Source of the DNA: Candidatus Heimdallarchaeum aukensis
GTDB taxonomy: Archaea; Asgardarchaeota; Heimdallarchaeia; Heimdallarchaeales; Heimdallarchaeaceae
Reading direction: 5' to 3'
Assembly: GCA_021513695.1 (NCBI GenBank)
Contig: CP084166.1
Span: forward strand, 1-64,000
DNA: 64,000 nucleotides
Shown: piece by piece, positions 5,519-38,614 of the stretch
Numbering within the stretch: the stretch's first letter is position 1
How the letters are laid out: each line of letters begins with the position of its first letter
Notes under the pieces: model-generated
The model's input: the letters and a program-made list of their open reading frames with translations, nothing else
What the model was told of the DNA's origin: nothing
Database searches by the model: none
Position numbers and translations under genes: made by a program

Positions 5519-6577
5519 TTGGTTAAATTTCCAAGCGATATAACTTCATTACAAAATCTGCAAACGTTACAGATTAATGAAAATCAACTAGAATCTCTTC
5601 CAGAATCTATTGGTGAACTAAAAAATTTAGCAGAGTTATATTTAAGACAAAATAATTTGAAATCTCTTCCAGAATCTATTGGGTATTTAACTGAACTCCA
5701 AGTTTTGGAATTGACTACAAATAAACTCACATCTTTACCTGAAACTATTGGTAATTTGAAAAATTTGAAAGAATTAATAATTTGCGGAAATAATTTAACC
5801 TCTCTTCCTGAATCAATAGGTGATTTATCTGAACTAGAAGTCTTGAACTTATATAATAATAAGTTAACATCTTTGCCTGAAAGTATTGGTAACTTAAAAA
5901 AGTTAAAGGAACTAAGTGTAAACAAAAACAATTTAACTTCTCTACCTAAGACAATAGGAAATTTGACAAATTTAGAAATCTTAGAATTAACTTTTAACAA
6001 TATTGAAGTTTTGCCAGACAGTATAGGAGAACTAAGTAGGCTGCAAAAGCTTTTTTTAGACTATAATTCTCTTCGTAATTTACCTGACGACATTAAAAAC
6101 TTAAGAAATATTCAACTCCTTCATCTTGCGCGTAATAACTTAACTACTTTTCCAGAATCAATCTGCAAATTAAATAGTTTAACATTATTGAACCTAGCAG
6201 GAAATAAATTATCATTGTTACCTGAATGTATTGGTAATTTAAGCAAATTGAAGACATTAGATCTTAAAAGTAATCAATTAAGTGAATTACCAAATAGTAT
6301 AGATAAGCTAACAAGTCTTCAAGTACTTGATTTAGGTAACAATAAATTCGAATACTTACCAGAGAGAATATGTTATATTGACACTTTACAGATTTTGAAA
6401 CTTTATGGCAATCAATTAAAGGATTTACCAGGAAATATAATGGAATTAAAAAACCTTCATTATTTAGATATTAGTGATAGTGATTTGTATTCTTTTTCTC
6501 CTGCAGTGAAAGAATGGTTGAAAGAATTTGATGAAAAAGCTACATTATACGTTTACTCAAGAGGAAAAAGTGCGTAA
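5519..6577 (+). CDS. leucine-rich repeat (LRR) protein, eukaryote-like 23-residue repeats
   Basis: About 14 tandem repeats of 'LxxLxxLxLxxNxLxSLPESIGNLxNL'. The track start is TTG at 5519. The reading frame is open upstream to a stop at 5333 with no in-frame ATG or GTG, so the true start is uncertain. Confidence 0.8.
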   Translation: MVKFPSDITSLQNLQTLQINENQLESLPESIGELKNLAELYLRQNNLKSLPESIGYLTELQVLELTTNKLTSLPETIGNLKNLKELIICGNNLTSLPESIGDLSELEVLNLYNNKLTSLPESIGNLKKLKELSVNKNNLTSLPKTIGNLTNLEILELTFNNIEVLPDSIGELSRLQKLFLDYNSLRNLPDDIKNLRNIQLLHLARNNLTTFPESICKLNSLTLLNLAGNKLSLLPECIGNLSKLKTLDLKSNQLSELPNSIDKLTSLQVLDLGNNKFEYLPERICYIDTLQILKLYGNQLKDLPGNIMELKNLHYLDISDSDLYSFSPAVKEWLKEFDEKATLYVYSRGKSA

Positions 6578-6886
6578 CTTTGTCAATAAAAAATAGAAAG
6601 GATGTTAAACTAAAAAATGCAAATAGAGGAAAAGTTGATTCATATACTAATTAAAACAAATTTACTGTTTTCAATAATCACTGATGTACTATAGAATTAG
6701 AAGCAAAAAAACTACTTTCTTAAGCTCTCTAAATTTTTTTGACAATATCCTCTTTCGGTAAAATTATTTAGTCTTGAAATCCTTATTTTTGCTCTTTTTA
6801 GAAGCATTTTTTCTTTTTTCTCTTAAACTTATTTAAGAATTTTATTTAATAATAATACTTATTAGAGTCTACGAAATTTCCAAGTT

Positions 6887-7342
6887 GTGGGTAAATTGGA
6901 TATAGAACACAGCGCGGGTATAGTTATTTACAACTCTGGAAGATACTTACTTTTAAATTATGGTCGTAGTTGGAACTCTCCTGATCGTTGGGGATTGACT
7001 AAAGGACACATTGAAAAAGGAGAAACAATAGAACAAGCTGCTTTAAGAGAAGCTTACGAAGAAACCGGCATCAAAAAAATAAAGATTTGTAAGGGTTTTA
7101 AGAATAAAGTTACTTATTATTTTAACAGAGGAGACAAAAGAATCAAAAAGACTGTGGTTTATTTAATAGGTATTACTGATGTAACTAAAGTTCATATTTC
7201 TGCTGAACATACTGGTTACTATTGGGCTAGCTATGAAAAAGCTTTAGAGATGTTAACTTTCGAAAATACAAGAAGAGTAATTAGAGCAGCAGAAGAATTT
7301 TTGAGAGAAAACGACCTAGCTGTAGATTTATATGAAGATTAA
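6887..7342 (+). CDS. NUDIX hydrolase
   Basis: Nudix box 'GHIEKGETIEQAALREAYEETGI' (GX5EX7REUXEEXGU). Confidence 0.8.
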   Translation: MGKLDIEHSAGIVIYNSGRYLLLNYGRSWNSPDRWGLTKGHIEKGETIEQAALREAYEETGIKKIKICKGFKNKVTYYFNRGDKRIKKTVVYLIGITDVTKVHISAEHTGYYWASYEKALEMLTFENTRRVIRAAEEFLRENDLAVDLYED

Positions 7343-7983: not shown

Positions 7984-8376
7984 TTAATATGAAAGAATTT
8001 TGAATCCTTGTTTTAAAATAGAATCTTGAAGTTCCTTAAAAGCTTTTAATGCTTCATTAAAATCAGTTTTAGATACTTTTGTTTCAACTGACTTAAGTCC
8101 TGCTCCTCTGAACTTCCACAACTCTACACTATACATAAATTTTTCAGGATCTGGAATGTGTAGACCTGACCTATCATACACATAACCCGATCTTTCCCCA
8201 AAAGAAAGCATCAGAATAAACCAATAGTGAGGTCTTGCGTCTTCATCATCTGAAGGCTTTTCTAGAATAATCGTTTCTTCCATCTGTGCACTTTTTGTTT
8301 CTGCAGACAATTCTAATTTCTTTAAGTTACGATAAACTTCTGGAGGTAATTTACGAATTGACATAGTTTTGTTCAC
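7984..8376 (-). CDS. hypothetical protein
   Basis: 130-aa ORF, no motif recognised. Confidence 0.35.
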   Translation of the reverse strand: MNKTMSIRKLPPEVYRNLKKLELSAETKSAQMEETIILEKPSDDEDARPHYWFILMLSFGERSGYVYDRSGLHIPDPEKFMYSVELWKFRGAGLKSVETKVSKTDFNEALKAFKELQDSILKQGFKILSY

Positions 8377-8530: not shown

Positions 8531-11119
8531 ATGGAAAAACCTCTCTCTATCATAATCACAGATATAGATTTTTTTATAGAAGAATCAACAGAAGAGAGAA
8601 ATGAGCCAATTATTAGAATTAAAGGGAGAGATAAGAAAGGAAAAGTTATTGTTATACATGCCAAAGGATTCCTTCCCTATTTTTATGTAAAAGATTTACC
8701 CCAAACTCAGAGTACAATTCAGAATTTGCTCCAAGTTAAGCCTGAATTTGGAGAATGGATTGTAAGAACTGAACATGTCTTAAAACGGACTTATTATCAG
8801 TTAAGACCTGTTTATTTGTACAAGATTCTGGGAAATAATCCCTGGAAAATTAGAGGATTTAGTAAATTCCTCATGGATAAAGGAATAAAATGCTATGAAA
8901 ACGATGTTCCTTTTGTTTCAAGGTTCTTAATTGATACAGGATTACGAGCTTTAAACACTGTGATAGTGTCAGAGTATGAATTCTTAAAAGAAGAAAATGA
9001 AATTAAATATTATATTACTCATTATTCAAATATTTCTCCTTCTGAAGAAGAAACAGAGTATTTTCCTTTAATTGTTGCTTTTAAAATATTTATAGACTTG
9101 TCAGATAAAGGAGAAGGAGAAAAGAAAACACGGACTACTTACTTGGAAGAAGGGAGTAGAAGGATAATAGGAGCTAGTGTTACTTGGGGGCGAAAAGGAG
9201 AAATAAAAGGTAAGAAGCATTTCATTTTAGAAAATGATTCAGATGAAGAAGAAGAGAAACTTATTCTTGATTTCTGGGATTTTATTCACTCGTTATCTCC
9301 TGATGTGTTAGTTAGTTTTAAAGGAAACAGCATAGATCTCGCTTATATTATAAAGCGAATGAACTACTTTGAAATCCCTCTAAATGTTTGTAGCCCATAT
9401 CCTAATGGAAAAGTAAAGGAGCCTACTACATTTTATGGTTATAGGATCTCTGGTTACATGGTTTATGATTTAGTTTCCAGATCAAGGTGGATGAGATTAA
9501 AAACAGGGCAATCCAGATTAACTGACCTTGTTGCTGCCTATTTAGATGAGAAAAGAGAGGTTACTTCTAGTGATATAAACAATTTATGGATCGATGCCAA
9601 AATTAACAAAGATTCTCAAGCTAATCTGAAACTTGAAAAAACAATTGATTCTGATAGTACTTTTGTATATAAGCTCTTTGTAGTTCTAGGTTTTGATGAG
9701 TGGTTAGAGGTTATGCGAATTGTAGGTATTCAACCTTCAAAAGGTATTTATTCTACAGCTCGTCATCTTGGGGAATTTGAACTGATGAGAGTTATACATA
9801 AAAATAACACAATAATCCCGAGCCTTCCTACTCGTAAAGAAAAAGAAAGAAGAAGAGTCAATCGACCATTGGCTGAAGGAGGTTTCGTCATGGAACCCAA
9901 AGGAACGCTGCATAGAGCTGTTTTAATAGCTGATTTTACAAGTATGTATCCTAGTGTAATAGTCACTCATAATATTGGAGGAGAAAGCTTTAAGGGTCTA
10001 ACTTATAGTTATTATGAACGTTTTTACGATAAACCTGAAACAGCATTAAGAGTAATGGAAAAAAAATTATTATCTGAACGTAAAGAACTAAAAAAGGAAA
10101 TAAAAGAATTAGAATTGTTTATACGCTCTTTTCCTGAAAAGAAAGCTGAGATTGAGAATAAACTTAGAAAAATGAAAATAAAATCCAGTGCTTTAAAGGT
10201 AATAGCCAACTCCTTATACGGGAGTCATAATTACATAGGAAGTAGATTTTATAACACTGACATTTCAAATGCAATTACACACTTTTCTAGAGTTTATATT
10301 GAGAAAGTAGCTAAACTTGCTCTAGATTTTAGCGGAGGAAAAGTGGAAATTGTGTATGGTGATACCGATAGTGCTTTTCTCAAACTTTCTGATGAACAAA
10401 GCGTTTTTACAGCTTACGACAAAGTAAAAAGTGGAGAACAATTTAGTCTTGATTTTGTTCCTGAAGCAAAAGATTTACTCTATTATATAAACTCCAAACT
10501 TCCTGAAGATATGAGTCTTGAATTTGTTGATCTGGCATTGAGAATCGTTTTTGCCAAAGAAACGAAGAAAAGGTATAGTTATGTTAGTGTAGTAACAGGA
10601 AATTTGGAAATAATAGGTTTTGAAGCTATACGTTCAGATTTTAGTTCTTTCGCAAAACAAGTTCAAACACTCGCTTTAGAGAAACTATTACGAGAAGGGA
10701 GCTATGAAAAAGCAAAAAGAGCAGTGATTAATTTCTGTAAAGAATTTCAAAAGAAAAAAGGAAAAGAGCTACTACAACTTGTAACAATATATGGACCTGT
10801 TAGAAAGCACCCTTCAGAATATAAAAGCAAAACCCCAGCAATAGCTGCTTTACTTGAATATTCTAGAGTTAAACAGATTTCAATAGAAGAGTTGCAGAAA
10901 GAATATCAACGATTTCCTTATGTAATTGTTAAGGGGCCTGATGACAAAAACATCTACAAAAGGGCTAGGCATCCTTCTCTTATTAAGTCAGTAAATGAAA
11001 TTGATAAGAACTATTATATTGAGCAAGCTTTACGTTCTATTCAAAGATTAGGTGTAGATATAAAGCCTTCAGAAATCGCTTTAGATGCAGTTTCTATATT
11101 AGATTTTTCACTAGATTAG
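8531..11119 (+). CDS. polB: family-B DNA polymerase (PolB)
   Basis: Polymerase motifs A 'DFTSMYPSVI', B 'KVIANSLYG' and C 'YGDTDS' are present. N-terminal 'YENDVPFVSRFLIDTGL' aligns with archaeal PolB. The Exo I position reads 'AFKIFIDL' rather than 'AFDIET'. Confidence 0.9.
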   Translation: MEKPLSIIITDIDFFIEESTEERNEPIIRIKGRDKKGKVIVIHAKGFLPYFYVKDLPQTQSTIQNLLQVKPEFGEWIVRTEHVLKRTYYQLRPVYLYKILGNNPWKIRGFSKFLMDKGIKCYENDVPFVSRFLIDTGLRALNTVIVSEYEFLKEENEIKYYITHYSNISPSEEETEYFPLIVAFKIFIDLSDKGEGEKKTRTTYLEEGSRRIIGASVTWGRKGEIKGKKHFILENDSDEEEEKLILDFWDFIHSLSPDVLVSFKGNSIDLAYIIKRMNYFEIPLNVCSPYPNGKVKEPTTFYGYRISGYMVYDLVSRSRWMRLKTGQSRLTDLVAAYLDEKREVTSSDINNLWIDAKINKDSQANLKLEKTIDSDSTFVYKLFVVLGFDEWLEVMRIVGIQPSKGIYSTARHLGEFELMRVIHKNNTIIPSLPTRKEKERRRVNRPLAEGGFVMEPKGTLHRAVLIADFTSMYPSVIVTHNIGGESFKGLTYSYYERFYDKPETALRVMEKKLLSERKELKKEIKELELFIRSFPEKKAEIENKLRKMKIKSSALKVIANSLYGSHNYIGSRFYNTDISNAITHFSRVYIEKVAKLALDFSGGKVEIVYGDTDSAFLKLSDEQSVFTAYDKVKSGEQFSLDFVPEAKDLLYYINSKLPEDMSLEFVDLALRIVFAKETKKRYSYVSVVTGNLEIIGFEAIRSDFSSFAKQVQTLALEKLLREGSYEKAKRAVINFCKEFQKKKGKELLQLVTIYGPVRKHPSEYKSKTPAIAALLEYSRVKQISIEELQKEYQRFPYVIVKGPDDKNIYKRARHPSLIKSVNEIDKNYYIEQALRSIQRLGVDIKPSEIALDAVSILDFSLD

Positions 11120-11232: not shown

Positions 11233-11472
11233 GTGAAAGTGTTGGCACGATGTCCTGATTGTGGAGGCGAAGTTAAGTACAAAGCTCCTTTTATGGTATG
11301 TATGGATTGTGGTCTTTCGTTTAGACGAGATGAATTTGAAAAAATGGAAAAGAAAATAAAGCAAGAATTAAAAACTGCTGTAGGATTAAGTGAAGAAGAA
11401 AAAGAAAGAGAAGACAGAGAGAAAAAACGTTCTTATTATCGCTGGTTAATGAAGAGAGAGGAAGAGGATTAA
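11233..11472 (+). CDS. small zinc-ribbon protein
   Basis: 'CPDCGG...CMDCG' gives two CxxC pairs. The C-terminus is a Glu/Lys-rich tail. Confidence 0.4.
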   Translation: MKVLARCPDCGGEVKYKAPFMVCMDCGLSFRRDEFEKMEKKIKQELKTAVGLSEEEKEREDREKKRSYYRWLMKREEED

Positions 11473-11473
11473 G

Positions 11474-11734
11474 ATGACGATTATAGCTCAACATCTTAAA
11501 TGCGATTTAAGGAAAAAATGTGCCTCATGTAGCAAATATCTTTTTTCTCCAAAACAAAGAACAAGATATTTTTATTGTCCAGAGTGTAAATACGACATTC
11601 TTTGTGACAGAGGATTAATCCAAAATTTTACTACAGATAGAAATGGGATGATCAAAAAGCAAAATCTATGTATGATCTGTAGAACTGAAGTTGAAGAAAG
11701 AATGTGGCCTGATGAAAGCGAAAATATAGAATGA
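11474..11734 (+). CDS. small zinc-ribbon protein
   Basis: 'CASC...CPEC...CMIC' CxxC pairs. Its start overlaps the preceding stop (translationally coupled pair). Confidence 0.4.
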   Translation: MTIIAQHLKCDLRKKCASCSKYLFSPKQRTRYFYCPECKYDILCDRGLIQNFTTDRNGMIKKQNLCMICRTEVEERMWPDESENIE

Positions 11735-17437: not shown

Positions 17438-17998
17438 GTGAAAAGGGTATTTATTTCGATTGATGTAGAAGATGAAGAAGTTTTAGAGAACATCAAACAA
17501 GTACAAAAAAAATTATTAGAAACAGGTTCCTCTATCAAACTTGTAGAACTCTTTAACTTACACCTAACTCTGGAGTTTCTAGGGGAAATAAATGAAAAAG
17601 AAGTAGAGTATGTTATGGATATTTTATCAAGCTTATCTTTTAATGAATTTAGTCTCTCTTTCCACAGTTTAGTAAGCTTACCCAATGAGAATTATATTAG
17701 AGTAATAGCTACTGAAGTTGGAGAGCAAGTTGATATACTTAAAAGTCTTCAAAGTGAATTGAGAGCAAAACTAAAGAAGGGACGATTTAAAGTAGATAAA
17801 AGAACTTATACTCCTCATCTGACCATAGCAAGAGTGAAGTCTAGAAAAAACAAAGAAAAAATACTCAAAATTCTGCATTCATATAAAGAAAAAAACTATG
17901 GAACAATAAAAGTAGATGCTATTAACTTGAAAGAATCTATTCTCACTCCTCAGGGGCCAAAATACATTACTCTATTCAAAAAAAAAGGTAGAAACTGA
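17438..17998 (+). CDS. thpR: RNA 2',3'-cyclic phosphodiesterase / 2'-5' RNA ligase (LigT/ThpR, 2H family)
   Basis: Two H-x-T-x motifs, 'HLTLEFLGE' and 'HLTIARV'. GTG start. Confidence 0.75.
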   Translation: MKRVFISIDVEDEEVLENIKQVQKKLLETGSSIKLVELFNLHLTLEFLGEINEKEVEYVMDILSSLSFNEFSLSFHSLVSLPNENYIRVIATEVGEQVDILKSLQSELRAKLKKGRFKVDKRTYTPHLTIARVKSRKNKEKILKILHSYKEKNYGTIKVDAINLKESILTPQGPKYITLFKKKGRN

Positions 17999-19488
17999 TG
18001 TCTGATAGTGTTGATGAGCAAATAGAAAAAAAGATGGATGAAATAGAGAATGCTGTTGTTGAACAGCTTGTTATTGATGAAGAATTTCATATGGAAGTAG
18101 AAGAGATATTAAATATACTAATTGAAAAAATCAATTCTGATCTTTCTTCTATAGGTGTTATAGGAAGAGTAGAGAAACAAGGATCTTTTGTAAGAAGAAC
18201 TTACTTAAATGAAGATGACTCCTATGATCTAGTATTGATACTAAAAAAAGATGAAAGACCAAATGTACCGAGAATATTAGATCAATTAGTAGAAAGATTG
18301 AAAAATGATAGAATACAAAAGCAACCTTTACAAATAACAAAAATTGTAGGCAAGATGCCTTATTTGAGAATGATTGCCAATGGAATATTAGTAAACCTGT
18401 TTGTAGGTTTTGACATCTCCCCAGAGCAATCTAAAATCTCCATTTTCGACCTTATTCCTCTACATACAAGTTACATAATTACCCATATGAGTGCCAACGA
18501 AAAGAAAGATGTACTACTTTTAAAGAAATTTATGAAAAGTATTGGTGTTTATAGAAATGAGATTGGTGCTATAGGATTCAATGGTTATTTATGCGAATTA
18601 CTTATTCTCTTTTATGGCTCATTTCGCAATACAATAAAAGCTATCGCTAAATGGAAACCCCGCGTTTTAATAGATATGAAGAAAAACAAACAAGTAATAG
18701 AAGATGTTGATGCACAAACAATTGAACTTCTAGGAGGATATTATCCACTATATGTGTCAGATCCGCTCGCTCCCAGAAACAATGTAGCAGCCGATGTTTC
18801 AATTGATCAATTTAATTCAGTTATTTCTGCTGCCAATGTTTATCTGTATTCTCCGAACTTATCTTTCTTTCTTTATCAACCTATAACCCTACCTTCTTTT
18901 GAAACATTAGTACAGAAAATAAAGATGTCAGGGAAAACTATTCTTGTTCTAAGTTTTGATAGAAGGCACCAAGAATCAGAAATTTGTTGGCACCAAGCGT
19001 TAAGTTTGAAAAGAGCTTTTACTAAAGAACTTGAGAGAAATCGTTATTTAATTGAAAGGATACAACCTTTTATAACTGATGAATATTATGGCATATTTAT
19101 CTCTCTATTCAAATCTAAACCTCAAGTTACTGTTAGGAGAGAAGGACCATTAATTTTTGACGGAAAAGCCTCTGCAAAGTTCCTAAAAACCTTTAGTACT
19201 CATGCTGATGTCGTTTCTGGCCCTTATATAGAAAAACAGAAATGGGTAATTTACTTCGCAAATAGAGGACAAAATGTTCTACTCTTTTTACAGTCACTAA
19301 TTCATTCTAATACTTTTATTCTAGAGGTAGATTCATTTCTTAAACTTGAAATAAAAAACAAACTAAAAATTCATTCTGTTGAAACAACATTAAAGAATCT
19401 TTATAATACTGATATAGAGTTCGCAGAGCAATTTTACCTTTTTGTAGAAAGAAAACCTATGTGGATCTTAAATATCGGAAAACAATAA
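17998..19488 (+). CDS. cca: archaeal class I CCA-adding tRNA nucleotidyltransferase
   Basis: Strong similarity to the Archaeoglobus CCA enzyme core: 'GFNGYLCELLILFYGSF', 'PRNNVAADVS', and the 'GSF...DDSYDLVL' nucleotidyltransferase motif. Confidence 0.85.
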   Translation: MSDSVDEQIEKKMDEIENAVVEQLVIDEEFHMEVEEILNILIEKINSDLSSIGVIGRVEKQGSFVRRTYLNEDDSYDLVLILKKDERPNVPRILDQLVERLKNDRIQKQPLQITKIVGKMPYLRMIANGILVNLFVGFDISPEQSKISIFDLIPLHTSYIITHMSANEKKDVLLLKKFMKSIGVYRNEIGAIGFNGYLCELLILFYGSFRNTIKAIAKWKPRVLIDMKKNKQVIEDVDAQTIELLGGYYPLYVSDPLAPRNNVAADVSIDQFNSVISAANVYLYSPNLSFFLYQPITLPSFETLVQKIKMSGKTILVLSFDRRHQESEICWHQALSLKRAFTKELERNRYLIERIQPFITDEYYGIFISLFKSKPQVTVRREGPLIFDGKASAKFLKTFSTHADVVSGPYIEKQKWVIYFANRGQNVLLFLQSLIHSNTFILEVDSFLKLEIKNKLKIHSVETTLKNLYNTDIEFAEQFYLFVERKPMWILNIGKQ

Positions 19489-26342: not shown

Positions 26343-27800
26343 ATGGTGGAAGACGTCGTCAAAACCTTGAAAGTGAGAATAAAGAAGGAGGTATTGACGA
26401 CGAGGAAGAAGGAAAGGTTAAGGAGAATAACGGGGAGAGACACGAGGATAATAGAGAAGTATGTGAGAATAATACATCACAACAGAAGAAAAATATGTGC
26501 TAAAACTAAAAAAGGGAAAATAAGAGTCCATAGAGGAAAACTAGATGAACTGACGCTAACTACTTCAAAAGTTAAAGAAGAAGAGAGAAGAAAGACTGTT
26601 CCTCACGATCTGAAGAAAATGTTCCCTTATTGTTCTCACAATGAATTCCAAGAATGTAGAGATATAGCCGTACAATTATATGAACAAGGGTATAGACCTA
26701 ACAATACTCGTCCTCCAATAAAGAGAGTTAGAAAACAACTAATTAATGCAAAGAGGTTTGTTCTCGTTCATCTGCCAAAAGAGAAGAATAACACTCTCAC
26801 TCGTTGGTGGGTGGGGATAAGAGACTCGTTAGATACGTGGAGAAGAAACACACCTTATCATCAGAAACTATGGTTACCTTTAGAGATGAGCACTTTCCAC
26901 CAGAAAGAGTTAAAGAAAGGAAGAATAAAAAGTTTAGAACTAAGATATAAACGTTCTACACATGAGTGGTGGGTGTATTTCCAACTAAAAGTCATTCCTC
27001 CTCCTTCTTTTTATCTCACAAGTCAAGGAGATAATTCTTCTTCTCTTCCCCCAGCTGTGCTGGGAATAGATCTAGGGATAAGCATTCCTGCTGCAGGAGT
27101 GCTTCTAACCCCTAAAAAGAAATTAACAAGTGAAGAAATAAAATTCTGGTATACCAAACAGTGGAATAAAGTTAATCACCGATATAAACTCAAACTTTCC
27201 CGTCTTCAGAGGAAAGCGGCTTTAAACGACCAGTCGGGTAAAAAACACCAGATTTACCGTTTTCTTGGTCTTCTCCGAAGAAGATATAAAAACGTTAAAC
27301 GAGCCTATATTTACCAATTTGTAAACGACATCGTGCAGACGATAGAGACTTATGCACAAGTGTATGACCTTTTTGTCGTTGTAGGTTATCCTAAACACAT
27401 TCGCGAGGAGAAAGGAAAGAGAAAAAGTACTCATAAGTTTCGTAGAAAACTTCATCAGTGGAACTTTTCTCTTGTTCTTGCCCTTCTTCGTCGAGCATTG
27501 ATACTTCGAGGATTTGAACCTCACCAAATATTAACGATAGAAGAAAGAGGGACATCCTCTCACTGTACTCGTTGCGGGAGGAAAGTTATCCGTCCCGTTA
27601 GAGGTTTAGTCCATTGCTCTTCTTGCAATTACACTTTCCACTCTGACCTCACAGGAGCAATGAATATCGCTCGTAAGTTCCTTGGTGCTCTTTTCCGTCC
27701 TCAAGGAAACACTATCACTGATTACCTCACTGGTCATAAATTCGGTCTCACTCATTTCACTGTTTGCCGAGGGCTCAGCCATTGGTTGCAGCCCCATTAG
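26343..27800 (+). CDS. tnpB: TnpB (IS200/IS605 OrfB, RuvC-like RNA-guided nuclease family)
   Basis: RuvC-I 'VLGIDLGIS'. C-terminal zinc finger 'CTRCGRK...CSSCNYTFHSDLTGAMNIARKF' (CxxC...CxxC followed by the RuvC-III-like HSD...N.A motif). Confidence 0.85.
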   Translation: MVEDVVKTLKVRIKKEVLTTRKKERLRRITGRDTRIIEKYVRIIHHNRRKICAKTKKGKIRVHRGKLDELTLTTSKVKEEERRKTVPHDLKKMFPYCSHNEFQECRDIAVQLYEQGYRPNNTRPPIKRVRKQLINAKRFVLVHLPKEKNNTLTRWWVGIRDSLDTWRRNTPYHQKLWLPLEMSTFHQKELKKGRIKSLELRYKRSTHEWWVYFQLKVIPPPSFYLTSQGDNSSSLPPAVLGIDLGISIPAAGVLLTPKKKLTSEEIKFWYTKQWNKVNHRYKLKLSRLQRKAALNDQSGKKHQIYRFLGLLRRRYKNVKRAYIYQFVNDIVQTIETYAQVYDLFVVVGYPKHIREEKGKRKSTHKFRRKLHQWNFSLVLALLRRALILRGFEPHQILTIEERGTSSHCTRCGRKVIRPVRGLVHCSSCNYTFHSDLTGAMNIARKFLGALFRPQGNTITDYLTGHKFGLTHFTVCRGLSHWLQPH

Positions 27801-32258: not shown

Positions 32259-35147
32259 ATGGCTATCAAAACCAAAAAAAACTCCACAAAGAAGAATTTA
32301 ATTACTGTTTTTGTAATTTTCTTGGTTTGTTTTAGTTTTATAAATTGTTTAACCTCTAACTTGTTAACTGTAGTAGCTTCAGGAAGCGGAGATTTTCCAC
32401 CTCCAAGTAGTGGAGAATGGACAATATCTCAAGAAACAATAGTTAATTCTGAAGTTATTTATATTAATGATTCAGTTTCAATAGAAAGTGGAGGATCTTT
32501 AGTATTAGAAAATTGTGTAATAGAAATGAATGGTAATGAAGATGACAAAGCTAATTTTATAGTTAATAATAATGGTAATCTTACAATAATTAATTCTAAA
32601 ATAGAAGCTTTTTCTGATTATTCATGGTACATCGAAGCAGAAGAAGGAGCTTCACTTAAAATTACTGACTCAACCCTAATAAACTTCAAAGGAAGCCAAT
32701 ATACATCAGTAATTACACTCTATAACAATTATTCTGAAATTACAAACAATAGTATCTCAAACTTCAAATATAAAGCCATTTTTGCTAGATTTACTAGTCA
32801 TCATAATAATATTACAAAAAACAAAATAAGTGGAGGGCTTGTTGGTTTTGAAGTAGTCGATGGATGGTACAACGAGATAAATGATAATGAGTTTCACTTA
32901 CTATCACAATTTGCGATTGCTATTAATAATGGTAGTTTTTCAAATATTCTTCGAAATAAAATATTTAATGTTTCTTCTATCGCAATCAATTTCCAAAAAT
33001 CAAAGAATGTTTTATGCAATAACAACAATATTTCTACGTCTAAAACTGCAATTGAGTGCTATTCAATCTATAATAGTAGTATCTCTAATAATATGTTCTC
33101 TAATATTCATGATTATTCAATTAGAGTATATACAGGGAATAATGTCACAATATCAAACAATTCAATTGATAATAGCGATTTAGCAAAAGGCATTATTAAT
33201 TCAGCTATTAGCCTGAGTGCGTGTAATAATTTTTCTATTAATGAAAATTCAATAATAAATACCCCAAGAACAGCTCTAGAAATTTTAAGTTCAACAAATT
33301 GTAGAATTTTTAACAATGTTTTTTCCATTAATAATTACTCTATCTTTATCTCTAGTTCTAATTATCTTGAAATTAAAAACAATTTACTATCTTATTCGAA
33401 TGATTATTCTATGTGGTTTATTAAATCAGATTTTTCATTGTTTGAAAACAACACAGTTAATTTTGGTCAATCTTGTGGAATTAGACTAAGTAGCTGTAAC
33501 AATAATTCTATATTAAGGAACATCATATTCAATAATAGTAAATATGGTATCGATATTTCTTCAAGTAATAATAATACGATACTGGAAAATGTTTTTGTTT
33601 TAAACAATAATGGTTCTATTCAAGCTTATGATAATGGATTAAATAATAGCTGGTATAGTAATTTAGAATCTGTTGGTAATTTTTGGAGTGATAATAATGG
33701 ATCATCTTTCTATTTAATAAATGGTGAATCAGGTTCTATGGATATTTTTGCGAATTATTCTGATTACGATAAAGATTTTATTCCTGATTATTATGAACTT
33801 GAAGTTGGTTTAGATATAACAATAAATGATGCTAATGACGACTTAGATGGGGATGGTTTGTCAAACTTCGAAGAATTTACTCTGGGTACTTTTCCTAATG
33901 ATCCTGATAGCGATGATGATGGTTTAATTGATTCAGTAGAAGTAGACTTGAAAACTGATCCTATGTCTAATGATACAGACAATGACAACCTTATTGATGG
34001 GTTAGAAATTCAATATGGATGTGACCCCTTTTCAAATGATACAGACATGGATGGACTAGATGACTGGTCAGAGATATTCTACTACTTCACTGACCCTTTA
34101 GATTATGACACTGATGGTGATGGGTTATCTGACTCTGATGAAGTTTATGCATATAATACAGACCCATTGGACGCTGACACTGATGATGATGGCTTAAATG
34201 ATGTAACTGAAGTACTAGGTTATGGTACTGATCCCAATGATGCAGATACAGATGGAGATGGATTAACAGATTACGAAGAAGTGATTGAATATTTTACTGA
34301 TCCTACGGATGTTGATACTGATGGTGATGGTTTAACAGATTATGAAGAGGTAAAATATTATGGAACAAATCCTAGGAAAGCTGACACTGATGGTGATGGA
34401 ATTTCTGACAATGATGAATTAATTCAAGGAAAAGATCCATTAGTCAATGAGAAACAAAGAAATGTAAGGATAATAATTATTGTATTTTCTGCTTTAGGTT
34501 CTGGTATACTGTTTATAGGATTAACTGTGCTGTTGATACTATTCCTGATAGAAAAGAACAAAAATAAAGAACAAGCATTGTTATCCCTTTTCAAGAAAAA
34601 AATTAGAGAACTAGAAAAGAAAATTAATATTATTGAAACAACAAAAATTGAAGAACTTATGTCTAAGACAGAAGAAAGAGCGAAAATTGATACTTTTTTC
34701 AATGAATTCCTTGAGGTTTTAGTGGACTTCGCAACATATTTTCTGGAAAATGAGGAATTAATTGAGAATAAAAAATGGTTACAAGCCAAAAAGAAGCTAA
34801 ATGAAGAATTAGATAAAGTGAGAGATTGGATTAATAAAAATCTACGTGCTCTAAAGGAATATGATATTTATGACAAACTAGTAAACCAGATAGATGGATT
34901 AGAAAATAAAGAAGAAATTAAGATTAGCAAGTTAGAAGCTTATAAGGAGATTGAAATTGCAAAAGGTATTTTGAGAGAATTCAAAAAAGTAGTAGAGAAA
35001 ACTTCTCCTTTTATCAACAAATTTTCCTATTCTACTTTAACTAAATATTGGGAGATTACAACTGAACTTATATTTGCTAATATGACACAGCTAGAAAAAA
35101 TTGAGGAAAAAATAAAAGATCTACTGGAAAGAGAGAAAACTCTATAA
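32259..35147 (+). CDS. large type-I membrane surface protein: signal peptide, parallel beta-helix (PbH1/NosD-like) repeats, thrombospondin-type-3-like Ca-binding repeats, TM helix, ~210-aa cytoplasmic coiled-coil tail
   Basis: N-terminal signal '[14 protein letters not shown]'. Repeated 'N-x-I-x-N-N' beta-helix rungs. About 10 '[12 protein letters not shown]'-type repeats. TM '[27 protein letters not shown]'. C-terminal K/E-rich heptads. Confidence 0.7.
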
Positions 35148-35497: not shown

Positions 35498-38400
35498 TTA
35501 TTTTCTAGATCTATTTGTTTTTATTGCAAGAATGGTCAAGCCTAAGAGTCCTAGAACGAAATAGAGGAAACTGAATGGATTTTTGGTTGTAGTCTCTTCT
35601 GGATGACTGTTTGAGTCAATAGGGTTAAAACCATTAGACGCTTCGTATCCATCAGTCCAACCATCTCCATCAGTGTCATTATTATGAGGATCAGTATTCC
35701 AATAGAATTCATCTCTATTAGTTAAACCATCTTCATCAGGATCTTCATTAGCATCATCTACTAAAGGATCTAAGTTGTTGTCTACTTCCCAACCATCAGG
35801 CATACCATCATCGTCGGTATCACTGTCAGTAGGGTCGGTGTTATTTGTATATTCTCCTAGATTTGATAAACCATCACTGTCTTTATCATCAGACCCATCA
35901 TCTGTTAATGGGTTTAATTCATATTTTAGTTCCCATCCATCGTCCATTCCATCTCCATCAGTATCTGCGTCAGTGCTTTGAGTGCCTAAAACTACATCTT
36001 CAAGGATATCATCTAAACCGTCTCCATCTATATCAGTTCCACTTATTGGATAAAGATCGACTGAAGAAGCCGTTCCTTGAATATTGGTATAAGTTCCTGT
36101 TGTTCCATTGTAGTCTGACCAATAGTTACCTACTTTTATTTCATCATTATACCATAGATTATTTGACCCATCATCTATAGCTAAAGTAATTTGGTCAAAG
36201 AATAAATAAGAAGCTGAAACGAAATAATTTTGATAGATTAGAGCATTAGAAATCGTAGAAGATAGTGAGATTAAGCAATAAATTTGCCTAATTTCTCCAT
36301 TAATATCAATTATGTCGAATATTTTATTGTACGTAATAATTGCTCCATCAATATCTCCATCTAAACGAATCCCTGCATTAGATACCGTGTTTTCTATGAT
36401 ATTTATAACATTTCTAGTAATCTCGAGATTTTCCCATTGTCCACGAATGTATATTCCTATAGTTCCTCCAGAATTTATTTCATTGTTGTCTATAACAAAA
36501 TTATTTCCTCCATCATTGGCGAAATAAATACCACTGTAAGATGATCCTAGATTTGTTGTTATTTGGTTATATGAGATAGTTATATTGTTGAAGATATTAC
36601 CACTAGCAACATAAATTCCTTTATTACAGTTGCTTATTTGGCTATTAGTTATTATTACATTGTCTACTTTTCTAGCATAATCAGCATAAAGTTCAATTCC
36701 TGAATCTACATTGGAGATGATGGTGTTATTTATTATTAAGCCGTCTGCGGCATAGACATCAATAGCGATTTCTTCATAATTTGATATTATTACATTTTTT
36801 ATTGTAAGATTTTCACTATCAAAAATATATATTGCTTTTGTTGATGTACCATCATGTAAATTTAGGTCTTCAAGAAAAACATTTTTTGAAGTATCAATAC
36901 TTATACTTCCATGTTCAATCTCTGCATTTACAAAAGTAATATTGGTAACTTCGTAAAAGTTTGAGGTACCTGAAAGGGTGTTACTTGTTATTTCGAAATT
37001 ACTAGAATAAGAAATGTAAAACGAGGTATTGGATGACAATATAGCATTATTTGTTATTTCTGTGAACTTTTCTGGCAGATTTGCAATAGTAAAAGCTCTA
37101 TCTACATTTTCAATATAATTGTTGGTAATGTATGTATTTCCTTCCAAAGCGTTACCATAAGAGGAAGTTATTGTGAAAACTTTTTCTGAATCTGAAATAT
37201 CGTTATTATCAAAAGTGACATTACCCACGTAAATTAGATCAAAAGCGGTATTATTAGCGTCTACTATCTCATTATTCACTATTGTAATATTATCATTTAT
37301 TACATAATTTGTGTTATATTTTTTATTTATATCAAGACCGTAAGATACACCTTCTATTATGTTATCTTTAAAAGTCAGAGTAATATTTGCAGTAGTAGAA
37401 TAATCTAAACACATTCCTTTATTTGCTTCATTAATAGTATTTCCTGTCACATTTAATGATTTCGTGTCATATACTATAATTCCATTATAGGCGTTGATAA
37501 ACTCGTTAGAAATTATAATTATTTCTTCATCAGCATATTGATCAATAGGATTCATAATATAAATCGCATTATCGTAAATATTTTCGAAACCGTTACCGGA
37601 AACAGTAATACTTTTTGAATCTTTAATTAAAATTCCTAAATCTGTATTTGATATAGAAAGTGATTTAATGTTAATATTAGTACAATCAATTAGAAATATC
37701 TGACCATAAATGTTAGTGTCAATATTTTTCGTATCGTTGCTAACAAAATAACCTACTTCTTTATTATTTACTTTGTTTCCCTTTACTATTATTGTATTAG
37801 CTTTTTCTTTAAGTGGTGCTAAAAACATCCCATCATTTACTAAAGTATTATTAACAATCTCAATAGTATCTGTTGTTTCCTTAGCAAGATAGATTCCATA
37901 TCCTTTATTTGACTCTATTGAATTATTTGCTATTATTTCATCATTTGATCCACCATTAATTAACAATCCAATATCATCGTTATTATTTATTGAATTATTT
38001 GCAATAGTAATAAAGTCTCCAGTAATATCTATACCTTTATTGTTGAATGAACAGTTATTTCCAGTTATAATTACGTTGTTTGAACCAGTTGAATAAATCC
38101 CTGCGTTACTATTAGATGAACAGGTATTATTTGCAATTATTGCGTTATTAACACCGTAAATGTTTATTCCATTATTACTTCCTGTTATGGTATTATTTAT
38201 TATCTTCTGACTATTAGTCATATAAACATTAATTCCATCTTCATTTCCACTTACAGTGTTTGATTCAATAGTTGCGATTCCATCAGCCACAGATACAATA
38301 TATATTCCCTTTCTAGATGCTTCAATAGAACAATTGACTATCTTAAAGTAAGCTGTTACGCTTAAACTATGAATATAAATTCCATAGTCTGATGATGTCT

Positions 38401-38614
38401 GTATTTTTAAGTTACTGATTATGTAAGGATCGTCTACTGTACCTGCTCCATCAACAACACCATTAGCTGAAGTAAAATCACTATCTGAAGCAATTACTAT
38501 TGGGTCATGTGTTGTGTATATTTTCAGTTTAGACTGTACGTTATTTAAACTTACAATCAATCCACTGCTAATTACAAGCATTATTAAAAACAATGATTTA
38601 TAGTTTTTCATCAA
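35498..38614 (-). CDS. large secreted surface protein: signal peptide, long parallel beta-helix region, TSP3-like Ca-binding repeats, C-terminal TM anchor with basic tail (sortase-type sorting signal candidate)
   Basis: Signal 'LFLIMLVISSGLIVSL'. Many 'NNTI.GN..GI' rungs. Acidic repeats '[14 protein letters not shown]', 'DSDTDDDGMPDGWE'. C-terminal 'NPFSFLYFVLGLLGLTILAIKTNRSRK'. Confidence 0.7.
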   Translation of the reverse strand: MMKNYKSLFLIMLVISSGLIVSLNNVQSKLKIYTTHDPIVIASDSDFTSANGVVDGAGTVDDPYIISNLKIQTSSDYGIYIHSLSVTAYFKIVNCSIEASRKGIYIVSVADGIATIESNTVSGNEDGINVYMTNSQKIINNTITGSNNGINIYGVNNAIIANNTCSSNSNAGIYSTGSNNVIITGNNCSFNNKGIDITGDFITIANNSINNNDDIGLLINGGSNDEIIANNSIESNKGYGIYLAKETTDTIEIVNNTLVNDGMFLAPLKEKANTIIVKGNKVNNKEVGYFVSNDTKNIDTNIYGQIFLIDCTNINIKSLSISNTDLGILIKDSKSITVSGNGFENIYDNAIYIMNPIDQYADEEIIIISNEFINAYNGIIVYDTKSLNVTGNTINEANKGMCLDYSTTANITLTFKDNIIEGVSYGLDINKKYNTNYVINDNITIVNNEIVDANNTAFDLIYVGNVTFDNNDISDSEKVFTITSSYGNALEGNTYITNNYIENVDRAFTIANLPEKFTEITNNAILSSNTSFYISYSSNFEITSNTLSGTSNFYEVTNITFVNAEIEHGSISIDTSKNVFLEDLNLHDGTSTKAIYIFDSENLTIKNVIISNYEEIAIDVYAADGLIINNTIISNVDSGIELYADYARKVDNVIITNSQISNCNKGIYVASGNIFNNITISYNQITTNLGSSYSGIYFANDGGNNFVIDNNEINSGGTIGIYIRGQWENLEITRNVINIIENTVSNAGIRLDGDIDGAIITYNKIFDIIDINGEIRQIYCLISLSSTISNALIYQNYFVSASYLFFDQITLAIDDGSNNLWYNDEIKVGNYWSDYNGTTGTYTNIQGTASSVDLYPISGTDIDGDGLDDILEDVVLGTQSTDADTDGDGMDDGWELKYELNPLTDDGSDDKDSDGLSNLGEYTNNTDPTDSDTDDDGMPDGWEVDNNLDPLVDDANEDPDEDGLTNRDEFYWNTDPHNNDTDGDGWTDGYEASNGFNPIDSNSHPEETTTKNPFSFLYFVLGLLGLTILAIKTNRSRK

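Follow-up and report, generated by a model that had tools for sequence, protein, structure and literature searches.

The family-B DNA polymerase (PolB) encoded in the first 64,000 nucleotides of contig CP084166.1 of Candidatus Heimdallarchaeum aukensis is very probably active as a polymerase and dead as a proofreading exonuclease, as judged from its sequence and predicted fold. The contig comprises 3,081,793 bp with a guanine plus cytosine (GC) content of ∼30%, and the whole 64-kb stretch analyzed is referred to here as the window. Loss of proofreading is indicated because both carboxylates of the Exo I motif and the Tyr of Exo III are replaced, and polymerase activity is expected to be retained because the catalytic motifs are intact and invariant, the full PolB fold is predicted, and purifying selection is strong. 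The initial annotation of this gene had proposed a proofreading-deficient but polymerization-competent enzyme, and that is the reading favored by the present results. The wider statement that the protein polymerizes without proofreading as an accessory to the family-D polymerase PolD is considered likely, with somewhat less confidence than the biochemical prediction itself.

The 862-residue product is 100% identical to the NCBI entry 'DNA-directed DNA polymerase [Candidatus Heimdallarchaeum aukensis]', and databases label it merely 'DNA-directed DNA polymerase'. Pfam DNA_pol_B (PF00136) matches amino acids (aa) 410–840 with an E-value of 6.1e-39 and 134.5 bits, and DNA_pol_B_exo1 (PF03104) matches aa 120–314 with 6.6e-11 and 42.5 bits, the cutoff being 23 bits in both cases; the NCBIfam equivalog cutoffs for archaeal and bacterial PolB are all missed by far (best 132.6 bits vs. 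a cutoff of 570). The nearest solved structures are the Thermococcales PolB3 enzymes KOD, 9°N, Pfu and P. abyssi (phmmer 2e-44, clade profile 1e-60), and PolB3 enzymes of Thermococcales and Pyrobaculum head the PDB matches, whether these are ranked by sequence, by profile or by fold. An exhaustive hidden Markov model search of 1.84 billion representatives delineates a PolB family specific to Asgard archaea, with about two dozen clusters at 50% identity and a gap in score that sets it apart from generic PolB3. The H. aukensis PolB is a divergent PolB3-like B-family polymerase of this family. Its own clade, designated clade C, contains 36 proteins of ∼870 aa that are 45–95% identical; those with names belong to Heimdallarchaeaceae or Heimdallarchaeota, and one member (P0027) is found in the metagenome-assembled genome (MAG) AB_125.

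In DEDD nucleases the two catalytic metals are coordinated by the Asp and Glu of Exo I. When 105 near-full-length relatives are aligned with L-INS-i, AFKIFIDL of the H. aukensis protein falls in the columns occupied by AFDIEVDH in exonuclease-intact Asgard relatives and by FDIET/V in DPANN and euryarchaeal PolB3. A second comparison, made by hhalign separately from the joint alignment, set a profile of the query clade only (A2) against a profile of exonuclease-intact (exo-intact) relatives only (A3) and pairs AFKIF with AFDIE, FKGNSID with FNGDNFD, and TIDSD with YSKTD. The DEDDy pentad is invariant in 30 of 30 exo-intact A3 sequences (D184, E186, D262, Y364 and D368 in the numbering of P0041), and the corresponding residues of the H. 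aukensis protein are K185, F187, D269, T371 and D375; three of five are lost, and the Asp residues of Exo II and Exo III remain. The Asn and Phe of the Exo II pattern NxxxFD are altered as well, as mapping by position on the KOD/Tgo sequence YNGDNFDF takes N210 to K264 and F214 to I268. The initial annotation, taking Pfu polymerase as its reference, had located Exo I at AFKIFIDL with D changed to K and E to F, had called Exo II partly changed with its catalytic Asp retained, and had described Exo III as keeping its Asp and losing its Tyr. The joint and profile–profile alignments agree with it on Exo I and Exo III, and the Exo II changes listed above bear out its description of that motif. The strings that it quoted are all present where it placed them (YENDVPF at aa 122, AFKIFIDL, FKGNSIDLAY, TIDSDSTFVYKL, DFTSMYPSVI at aa 468, KVIANSLYG at aa 556, and YGDTDS at aa 609).

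A DxE motif displaced to some other part of the N-terminal region, or lying inside the insertion that precedes Exo I, was sought as evidence against this assignment; none was found, and DxE is absent from the N-terminal 420 residues of every clade member. The insert at aa 139–182 was rejected as the site of a displaced motif on the grounds that it contains no conserved acidic pair and is common to exo-intact proteins; the exo-intact Asgard and DPANN relatives with the same insert carry DxE at residues ∼162–201. The description of a roughly 30-residue insertion before Exo I holds relative to Thermococcales PolB, where it measures ∼32 aa, but not relative to the exo-intact Asgard and DPANN relatives, which share it. 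The equivalence of K185 and F187 to D141 and E143 of KOD is a transitive mapping that passes through those same relatives, and it is supported by the RNase-H-like order of strands and helices in the predicted model (β1 at 181–188, hairpin at 212–232, helix at 238–255, β4 at 259–262, and helix at 265–279). The double mutation D141A/E143A is the standard one for abolishing proofreading in Thermococcales PolBs.

Features of the PolB gene and of other loci discussed in the text. Positions are those of the window unless a locus (L number) is named; aa, residues of the 862-aa product unless they give a length.
Feature	Position	Strand	Remarks
PolB gene, 862-aa B-family DNA polymerase	8531..11119	+	ORF (open reading frame), ATG start, TAG stop
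Four-strand β insert between N-terminal domain and Exo I, aa 139–182	8945..9076	+	
Exo I remnant AFKIFIDL, aa 183–190	9077..9100	+	K185 for catalytic Asp, F187 for catalytic Glu
Exo II remnant FKGNSIDLAY, aa 263–272	9317..9346	+	Catalytic Asp D269 kept
Exo III remnant TIDSDSTFVYKL, aa 371–382	9641..9676	+	Tyr replaced by T371, Asp D375 kept
Motif A DFTSMYPSVI	9932..9961	+	Metal-ligand D468, steric-gate Y473
Motif B KVIANSLYG	10196..10222	+	K556, N560, Y563, G564
Motif C YGDTDS	10355..10372	+	D611, D613
KKRY primer-terminus motif	10565..10576	+	K680, Y682 invariant
C-terminal disordered tail AVSILDFSLD	11087..11116	+	PIP-box-like
NUDIX hydrolase gene, upstream of PolB	6887..7342	+	Also L081 4410-4859, L082 4003-4452; tied to PolB by synteny only
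130-aa ORF, divergent from PolB	7984..8376	-	Also L001 9454-9846, L081 5433-5813, L082 5220-5600
Cys4 zinc-ribbon ORF, 79 aa, directly downstream of PolB	11233..11472	+	
Cys4 zinc-ribbon ORF, 86 aa, downstream of PolB	11474..11734	+	
Group B SRAP-PolB loci	L085 5066-8925, L086 3060-6916, L087 3120-6877		
Leucine-rich-repeat protein	5519..6577	+	LRR_14, 2e-63
Archaeal class I CCA-adding enzyme	17998..19488	+	tRNA_NucTransf2 + CAA_C
Cas12f1-like/TnpB TNB-domain ORF	26343..27800	+	1.2e-8
Very large β-helix/NosD protein with bacterial TSP3 repeats	32259..35147	+	
Very large β-helix/NosD protein with bacterial TSP3 repeats	35498..38614	-	

Motifs A, B and C, called canonical at the outset, are confirmed as such, and so is KKRY, the reference patterns being DxxSLYPS for motif A, KxxxNSxYG for motif B, YGDTDS for motif C and KKRY itself. 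Motifs A, B and C are intact in every clade member, and 71 diverse relatives show no variation at residues D468, K556, N560, G564, Y609, D611, T612, D613, K680 and Y682. The AlphaFold2 model, computed from an alignment of 71 sequences, comprises the full PolB fold with N-terminal, Exo, palm, fingers and thumb domains; its predicted local distance difference test score (pLDDT) is 90.3 and its predicted template modeling score (pTM) is 0.86, with uncertainty confined to residues 190–210 and the last 11 residues. Foldseek aligns the model with polymerase–DNA complexes of 9°N and KOD in the replicative state (E-value 1.8e-43, TM-scores of 0.72/0.81). Equivalents of the uracil-sensing pocket, mapped onto KOD, are F14, P49, Y50, P104, I107, V126, P127 and F128. 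The only cysteines are Cys121, Cys287 and Cys736, and the protein stops ∼20 aa past the thumb. Two variations within clade C concern these same regions: in most members motif A reads DFRSMFPS, with Phe for the steric-gate Tyr, the Heimdallarchaeum proteins and P0004 keeping DFTSMYPS, and in most members the uracil-pocket sequence DIPF has become DISY, the H. aukensis protein having DVPF.

The C-terminal tail resembles a PCNA-interacting protein (PIP) box. Compared with the consensus Qxx[ILM]xx[FY][FYWL], the sequence AVSILDFS has Ile at position 4 and Phe at position 7, lacks the Gln, and has Ser at position 8, all within a tail of low pLDDT. This tail, for which the clade consensus is QKTLDFSL, can be aligned with canonical PIP boxes found in the sister lineage (KRLIDFF) and in the exo-intact Asgard group A (QTKISAFF). 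Tethering to PCNA through this PIP-like tail is plausible on the strength of these sequence resemblances.

Strong purifying selection acts on every domain, and the gene is functional. Between H. aukensis and its orthologue in H. endolithica (chromosome CP084167.1, 3,326,783 bp; locus L001, 92% amino acid identity) the ratio of nonsynonymous to synonymous substitution rates (dN/dS) is 0.049 overall, with values of 0.045 for the N-terminal domain, 0.071 for the Exo domain (reaching 0.099 within the Exo I stretch), 0.031 for palm and fingers, and 0.047 for the thumb. The ratio of identity in the Exo domain to identity in the palm is 0.85 in exo-intact group A, 0.80 in group B, another Asgard group described below, and 0.76 in the query clade. 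The Exo domain is somewhat relaxed yet kept as a constrained structural fold, as it is in Pol alpha and Pol zeta.

The degeneracy of Exo I first described for the H. aukensis protein is real, but it is not peculiar to that one protein, as all 36 clade C orthologues share it, each lacking both Exo I carboxylates. The replacements vary among K, R, N, S and G at the Asp position and among F, V, I, T, A and N at the Glu position. The Asp of Exo II is lost as well (NGNxxTLPY) in all of clade C except the Heimdallarchaeum subclade and P0022, and across the clade the Tyr of Exo III is gone and its Asp is retained. Bootstrapped neighbor-joining trees, which contain only sequences of the Asgard family and B3-like sequences from DPANN and Euryarchaeota and in which long branches may have affected where clade C is placed, recover clade C as monophyletic with 100% bootstrap support and place the exo-intact P0121 lineage as its sister with 93%. 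This sister lineage, one member of which is named Ca. Kariarchaeaceae, keeps the full DEDDy pentad in 12 of 12 members. An exo-intact sister lineage combined with loss in 36 of 36 clade members places the death of the site on the Heimdallarchaeaceae stem; as reconstructed from these sequences, Exo I was lost there after the split from the Kariarchaeaceae-type sister, with further decay later.

Clade C is not the only such case in the Asgard PolB family. In group B (for example P0079, P0064 and P0060) the Exo I Asp is replaced by N, S or T and the Glu by K; the group is monophyletic with 100% support and adjoins exo-intact group A, a paralogue of which is present in the same MAGs, as indicated by shared locus-tag prefixes (EAX90, FK733 and FK734). 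In the same trees P0127 and P0131, both with a dead Exo I, branch away from clade C and from group B. The dead Exo I strings are SITVEAK in P0127, SIRINPG in P0131 (P0263 on a 2.85-Mb contig), and AVKVKVN in P0129. This sequence evidence shows at least three further independent losses of Exo I in the family (group B, P0127 and P0131) and implies a minimum of four in all.

Retention of proofreading, either by a non-canonical site composed of D189, D269 and D375 or by an exonuclease acting in trans from a partner, is quite improbable. Such retention would accommodate the Exo II and Exo III Asp residues and the Asp or Glu four residues past K185 that are kept in the Heimdallarchaeum subclade and P0022, the dN/dS of 0.07 in the Exo domain, and the conserved 130-aa protein encoded beside PolB. 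Nevertheless, Lys and Phe replace both of the Exo I carboxylates that are invariant in 30 exo-intact relatives, and the nucleophile-orienting Tyr is gone. Moreover, the substituted positions drift and most members lose the Exo II Asp, as expected of a dead site and not of a remodeled one, and the Asp at the fourth position is found also in exo-intact group A (AFDIEVD) and hence is no replacement. The opposite extreme, that the protein is a catalytically inert structural relic comparable to the C-terminal half of Pol epsilon, would be in keeping with the clear inactivation of part of one domain; it is extremely improbable, as no variation is seen in motifs A, B, C and KKRY, dN/dS is lowest in palm and fingers (0.031), and the model fits PolB–DNA complexes in the replicative state.

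It might also be proposed that this PolB is the main and only replicative polymerase, in which case the organism would replicate without polymerase-intrinsic proofreading. The high conservation of the polymerase domain is consistent with such a role, as is the finding that, among the matches listed, only P0001 and P0003 come from the two closed Heimdallarchaeum chromosomes, although the evidence that a second PolB is absent is weak. We know of no cellular organism that replicates a 3-Mb genome without any proofreading. In addition, an active PolD is reported within the family (AB125; available text of PMC7544198) and the PolD subunit DP2 within Heimdallarchaeia (available text of PMC12680538), and PolD alone suffices in T. 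kodakarensis (PMC13136892), so that a sole-replicase role is very improbable. An origin from an integrated virus or mobile element is scarcely credible. Archaeal viruses and casposons commonly encode B-family polymerases, and a TnpB-like ORF lies 15 kb away; against this, the neighborhood is kept across clade members that are only ∼48% identical, the GC content equals that of the flanks, IMG/VR holds no relatives, and genes for a terminal protein, an integrase or a capsid are not found adjacent to PolB.

Several observations weigh against the conclusion that the H. aukensis enzyme is a proofreading-dead accessory to PolD. Residues 140–239 are skipped in alignments to any solved PolB, both by phmmer with the single sequence and with the clade-only profile. 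The Exo domain is still strongly constrained (dN/dS 0.071), and the Heimdallarchaeum subclade keeps D269 and D375 together with D189, which lies on the same face of the Exo I strand; residual nuclease activity of a weak or non-canonical kind is therefore conceivable. The presence of PolD in the genus Heimdallarchaeum is taken from the literature and not from the H. aukensis genome. The two Heimdallarchaeum chromosomes may carry a second, exo-intact PolB; none is among the matches listed, which come from a word-indexed search that misses most homologues of ∼33% identity. The neighbors of clade C PolB, a generic NUDIX gene and the 130-aa ORF, give no clear pointer to repair, and the specific cellular role suggested for clade C PolB is drawn from analogy.

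The word-indexed protein search recovered just one member of clade C, so that evidence of absence from it is weak, and a scan of reference genomes returned, among the matches listed, mostly unrelated archaeal PolB3 loci and, from the clade, only the H. endolithica orthologue. The large ORFs of the window include no further polymerase. According to the available text of Kazlauskas 2020 (PMC7544198), Heimdall AB125 encodes active DP1 and DP2. The available portions of Feng 2025 (PMC12680538) report that the Heimdallarchaeal primase binds the C-terminal domain of DP2, that DP2 is missing only in Baldrarchaeia and Aenigmatarchaeota, where DP1 is retained, and that Asgard PolBs sort into clades A–F; 'Heimdall' in its figure legends denotes Ca. 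H. endolithica.

The proposed accessory role can be stated as follows. The Heimdallarchaeaceae PolB would synthesize DNA without excising its own errors while tethered to PCNA by its PIP-like tail, and it would be accessory to PolD, whose Mre11-like DP1 subunit would supply proofreading for bulk replication. Its likeliest tasks would be gap filling on the lagging strand or completion of Okazaki fragments, where missing proofreading could be tolerated, and the elongation of primer ends that are mismatched or lie opposite a lesion, where it could be advantageous. This role is suggested because precedents exist in T. kodakarensis PolB, which is dispensable and performs lagging-strand work beside PolD (PMC13136892), in exonuclease-less Sulfolobus Dpo2, which is an extender of mismatches and lesions (PMC8764526), and in the group B polymerases linked to SRAP genes. 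A bolder proposal, that Heimdallarchaeaceae independently evolved a eukaryote-like division of labor in which an exo-dead, PCNA-tethered PolB comparable to Pol alpha or Pol zeta hands off to PolD, is regarded as rather unlikely. PolB would in that case extend the primers of a eukaryote-like primase, or damaged termini, before proofreading PolD takes over. The Heimdall clan, to which Heimdallarchaeaceae belong, is placed closest to eukaryotes in the available text of Feng 2025 (PMC12680538). If the proposal were true, recurrent Exo loss in Asgard PolB paralogues would be an archaeal prelude to the specialized non-proofreading B-family polymerases of eukaryotes.

The order NUDIX (+), membrane protein (+), 130-aa ORF (−) and PolB (+) is kept in H. 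endolithica and even where clade members have no more than ∼48% identity. The divergent ORF (126–130 aa) adjoins PolB in four of four clade C loci and is 57–65% identical among them, above the identity of the polymerase itself, the association being one of synteny only; it matches no Pfam or NCBIfam family, and the only hint is a FitA-like ribbon-helix-helix similarity at its N-terminus with an E-value of 0.21. A 129-aa divergent ORF in the sister-lineage locus L088 was considered as its counterpart and rejected, as the two are not homologous. The NUDIX protein scores below the cutoff of all NCBIfam equivalogs, the closest being dihydroneopterin-triphosphate diphosphatase (1e-10) and MutT1 (2e-8); a NUDIX enzyme that sanitizes the nucleotide pool would make sense beside a non-proofreading polymerase. 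Neither Pfam nor NCBIfam gives a specific function for the NUDIX protein, the 130-aa ORF or the two zinc-ribbon ORFs. The zinc-ribbon ORFs are near-identical in H. endolithica, and at distant clade loci two small ORFs, similar in size and place only, lie near a LarA-like gene on the opposite side of PolB. The loci of group A, group B and the sister lineage have no neighbors in common with those of clade C.

In group B, an SRAP gene (PF02586, of the HMCES/YedK abasic-site type) lies directly upstream of PolB on the same strand in three of three loci, which represent both deep branches of the group, and this pairing suggests a damage-tolerance module. Genes for AMP-binding and Peptidase_M23-like proteins also lie upstream at group B loci.

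The H. aukensis PolB gene is chromosomal and not mobile, because its synteny is conserved, relatives are absent from IMG/VR, and no compositional anomaly is seen, its GC content being the same as that of its flanks; its immediate neighbors include no gene for a terminal protein, an integrase or a capsid. Elsewhere in the window, the segment at 26–30 kb, which holds the TnpB-like ORF, rises to a GC fraction of 0.37 vs. ∼0.30 in the remainder and may be an element of the IS200/IS605 type or other imported DNA. In H. endolithica, ∼2 kb of extra sequence between the leucine-rich-repeat and NUDIX genes (L001 6147-8218) contains a 349-aa ORF, a 141-aa ORF resembling a helix-turn-helix protein, and fragments; these are absent from the corresponding part of the H. 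aukensis window (∼6577–6887), and the arrangement resembles an insertion-sequence insertion. The leucine-rich-repeat protein and the two β-helix/NosD proteins are probably surface or secreted proteins unrelated to the PolB finding. The CCA-adding enzyme is ordinary and bears on a 2026 preprint on Asgard CCA enzymes. Rfam and tRNA scans of the 64-kb window returned no matches.

To our knowledge, natural proofreading-dead PolBs are known from few lineages only, namely archaeal PolB2 and eukaryotic Pol alpha and Pol zeta. The present analysis adds the PolB of a whole Asgard family, which is predicted to have lost proofreading while remaining under strong selection, and related Asgard paralogues in which the same loss occurred at least three more times. 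The exo-dead PolB of Heimdallarchaeaceae is not mentioned in the searchable text of the papers on PolB diversity (PMC7544198) and on the Asgard replisome (PMC12680538). These are cloneable proteins with which the use of a non-proofreading PolB by PolD-bearing archaea could be tested and with which it could be probed whether functional specialization of B-family polymerases preceded eukaryotes; in practical terms they offer a polymerase scaffold that is exo-minus by nature. The repeated loss of Exo and the linkage of group B to SRAP are the most interesting by-products of the analysis.

Among known systems, the Thermococcales PolB3 enzymes (KOD, 9°N, Pfu, Tgo and P. abyssi) have the same domain order, polymerase motifs and uracil-pocket equivalents as the H. 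aukensis protein, which differs from them in being only 22–24% identical, in its β insert of ∼32 aa before Exo I, and in its longer fingers. Engineered D141A/E143A variants of these enzymes are altered at the same two residues that are naturally K185 and F187 in H. aukensis, where, by contrast, the defect is natural and clade-wide and extends to loss of the Exo III Tyr. Closer at hand, the Kariarchaeaceae-type Asgard PolBs (P0121/P0268) are ∼830–870 aa long, share the family-specific features, and have PIP-type tails that align with those of clade C; they differ in keeping the full pentad in all 12 members and in having no gene neighborhood in common with clade C. Group B resembles clade C in belonging to the Asgard family, in having lost Exo I with the polymerase motifs intact, and in its PIP-like tail, but its loss was independent, its Exo II and Exo III Asp residues are kept throughout, it is linked to SRAP and accompanied by an exo-intact paralogue, and its members are 930–1010 aa long.

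Archaeal PolB2, represented by Sulfolobus Dpo2, provides a functional precedent as a natural polymerase-active, exonuclease-free PolB that acts as an extender in translesion synthesis (PMC8764526). According to the available text of PMC7544198, PolB2 proteins lack Exo III and have a single Asp in motif C together with a D(K/R) motif. Membership of H. aukensis PolB in PolB2 was considered and ruled out, as its YGDTDS has both Asp residues and it retains Exo III, both helix and Asp. In eukaryotic Pol alpha and Pol zeta the Exo domain is inactivated but structurally kept (available text of PMC7544198), and these enzymes resemble the H. aukensis PolB in being B-family polymerases that retain an inactivated Exo domain and exist beside proofreading replicases. 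Assignment to the Pol alpha or Pol zeta type was also ruled out, as the H. aukensis protein lacks a Cys-rich C-terminal domain and bears no specific relationship to these enzymes, its clade profile reaching 111 bits with Pol alpha and 107 bits with Pol delta against 208 bits with Thermococcales PolB. Exo loss in clade C and in Pol alpha and Pol zeta is convergent.

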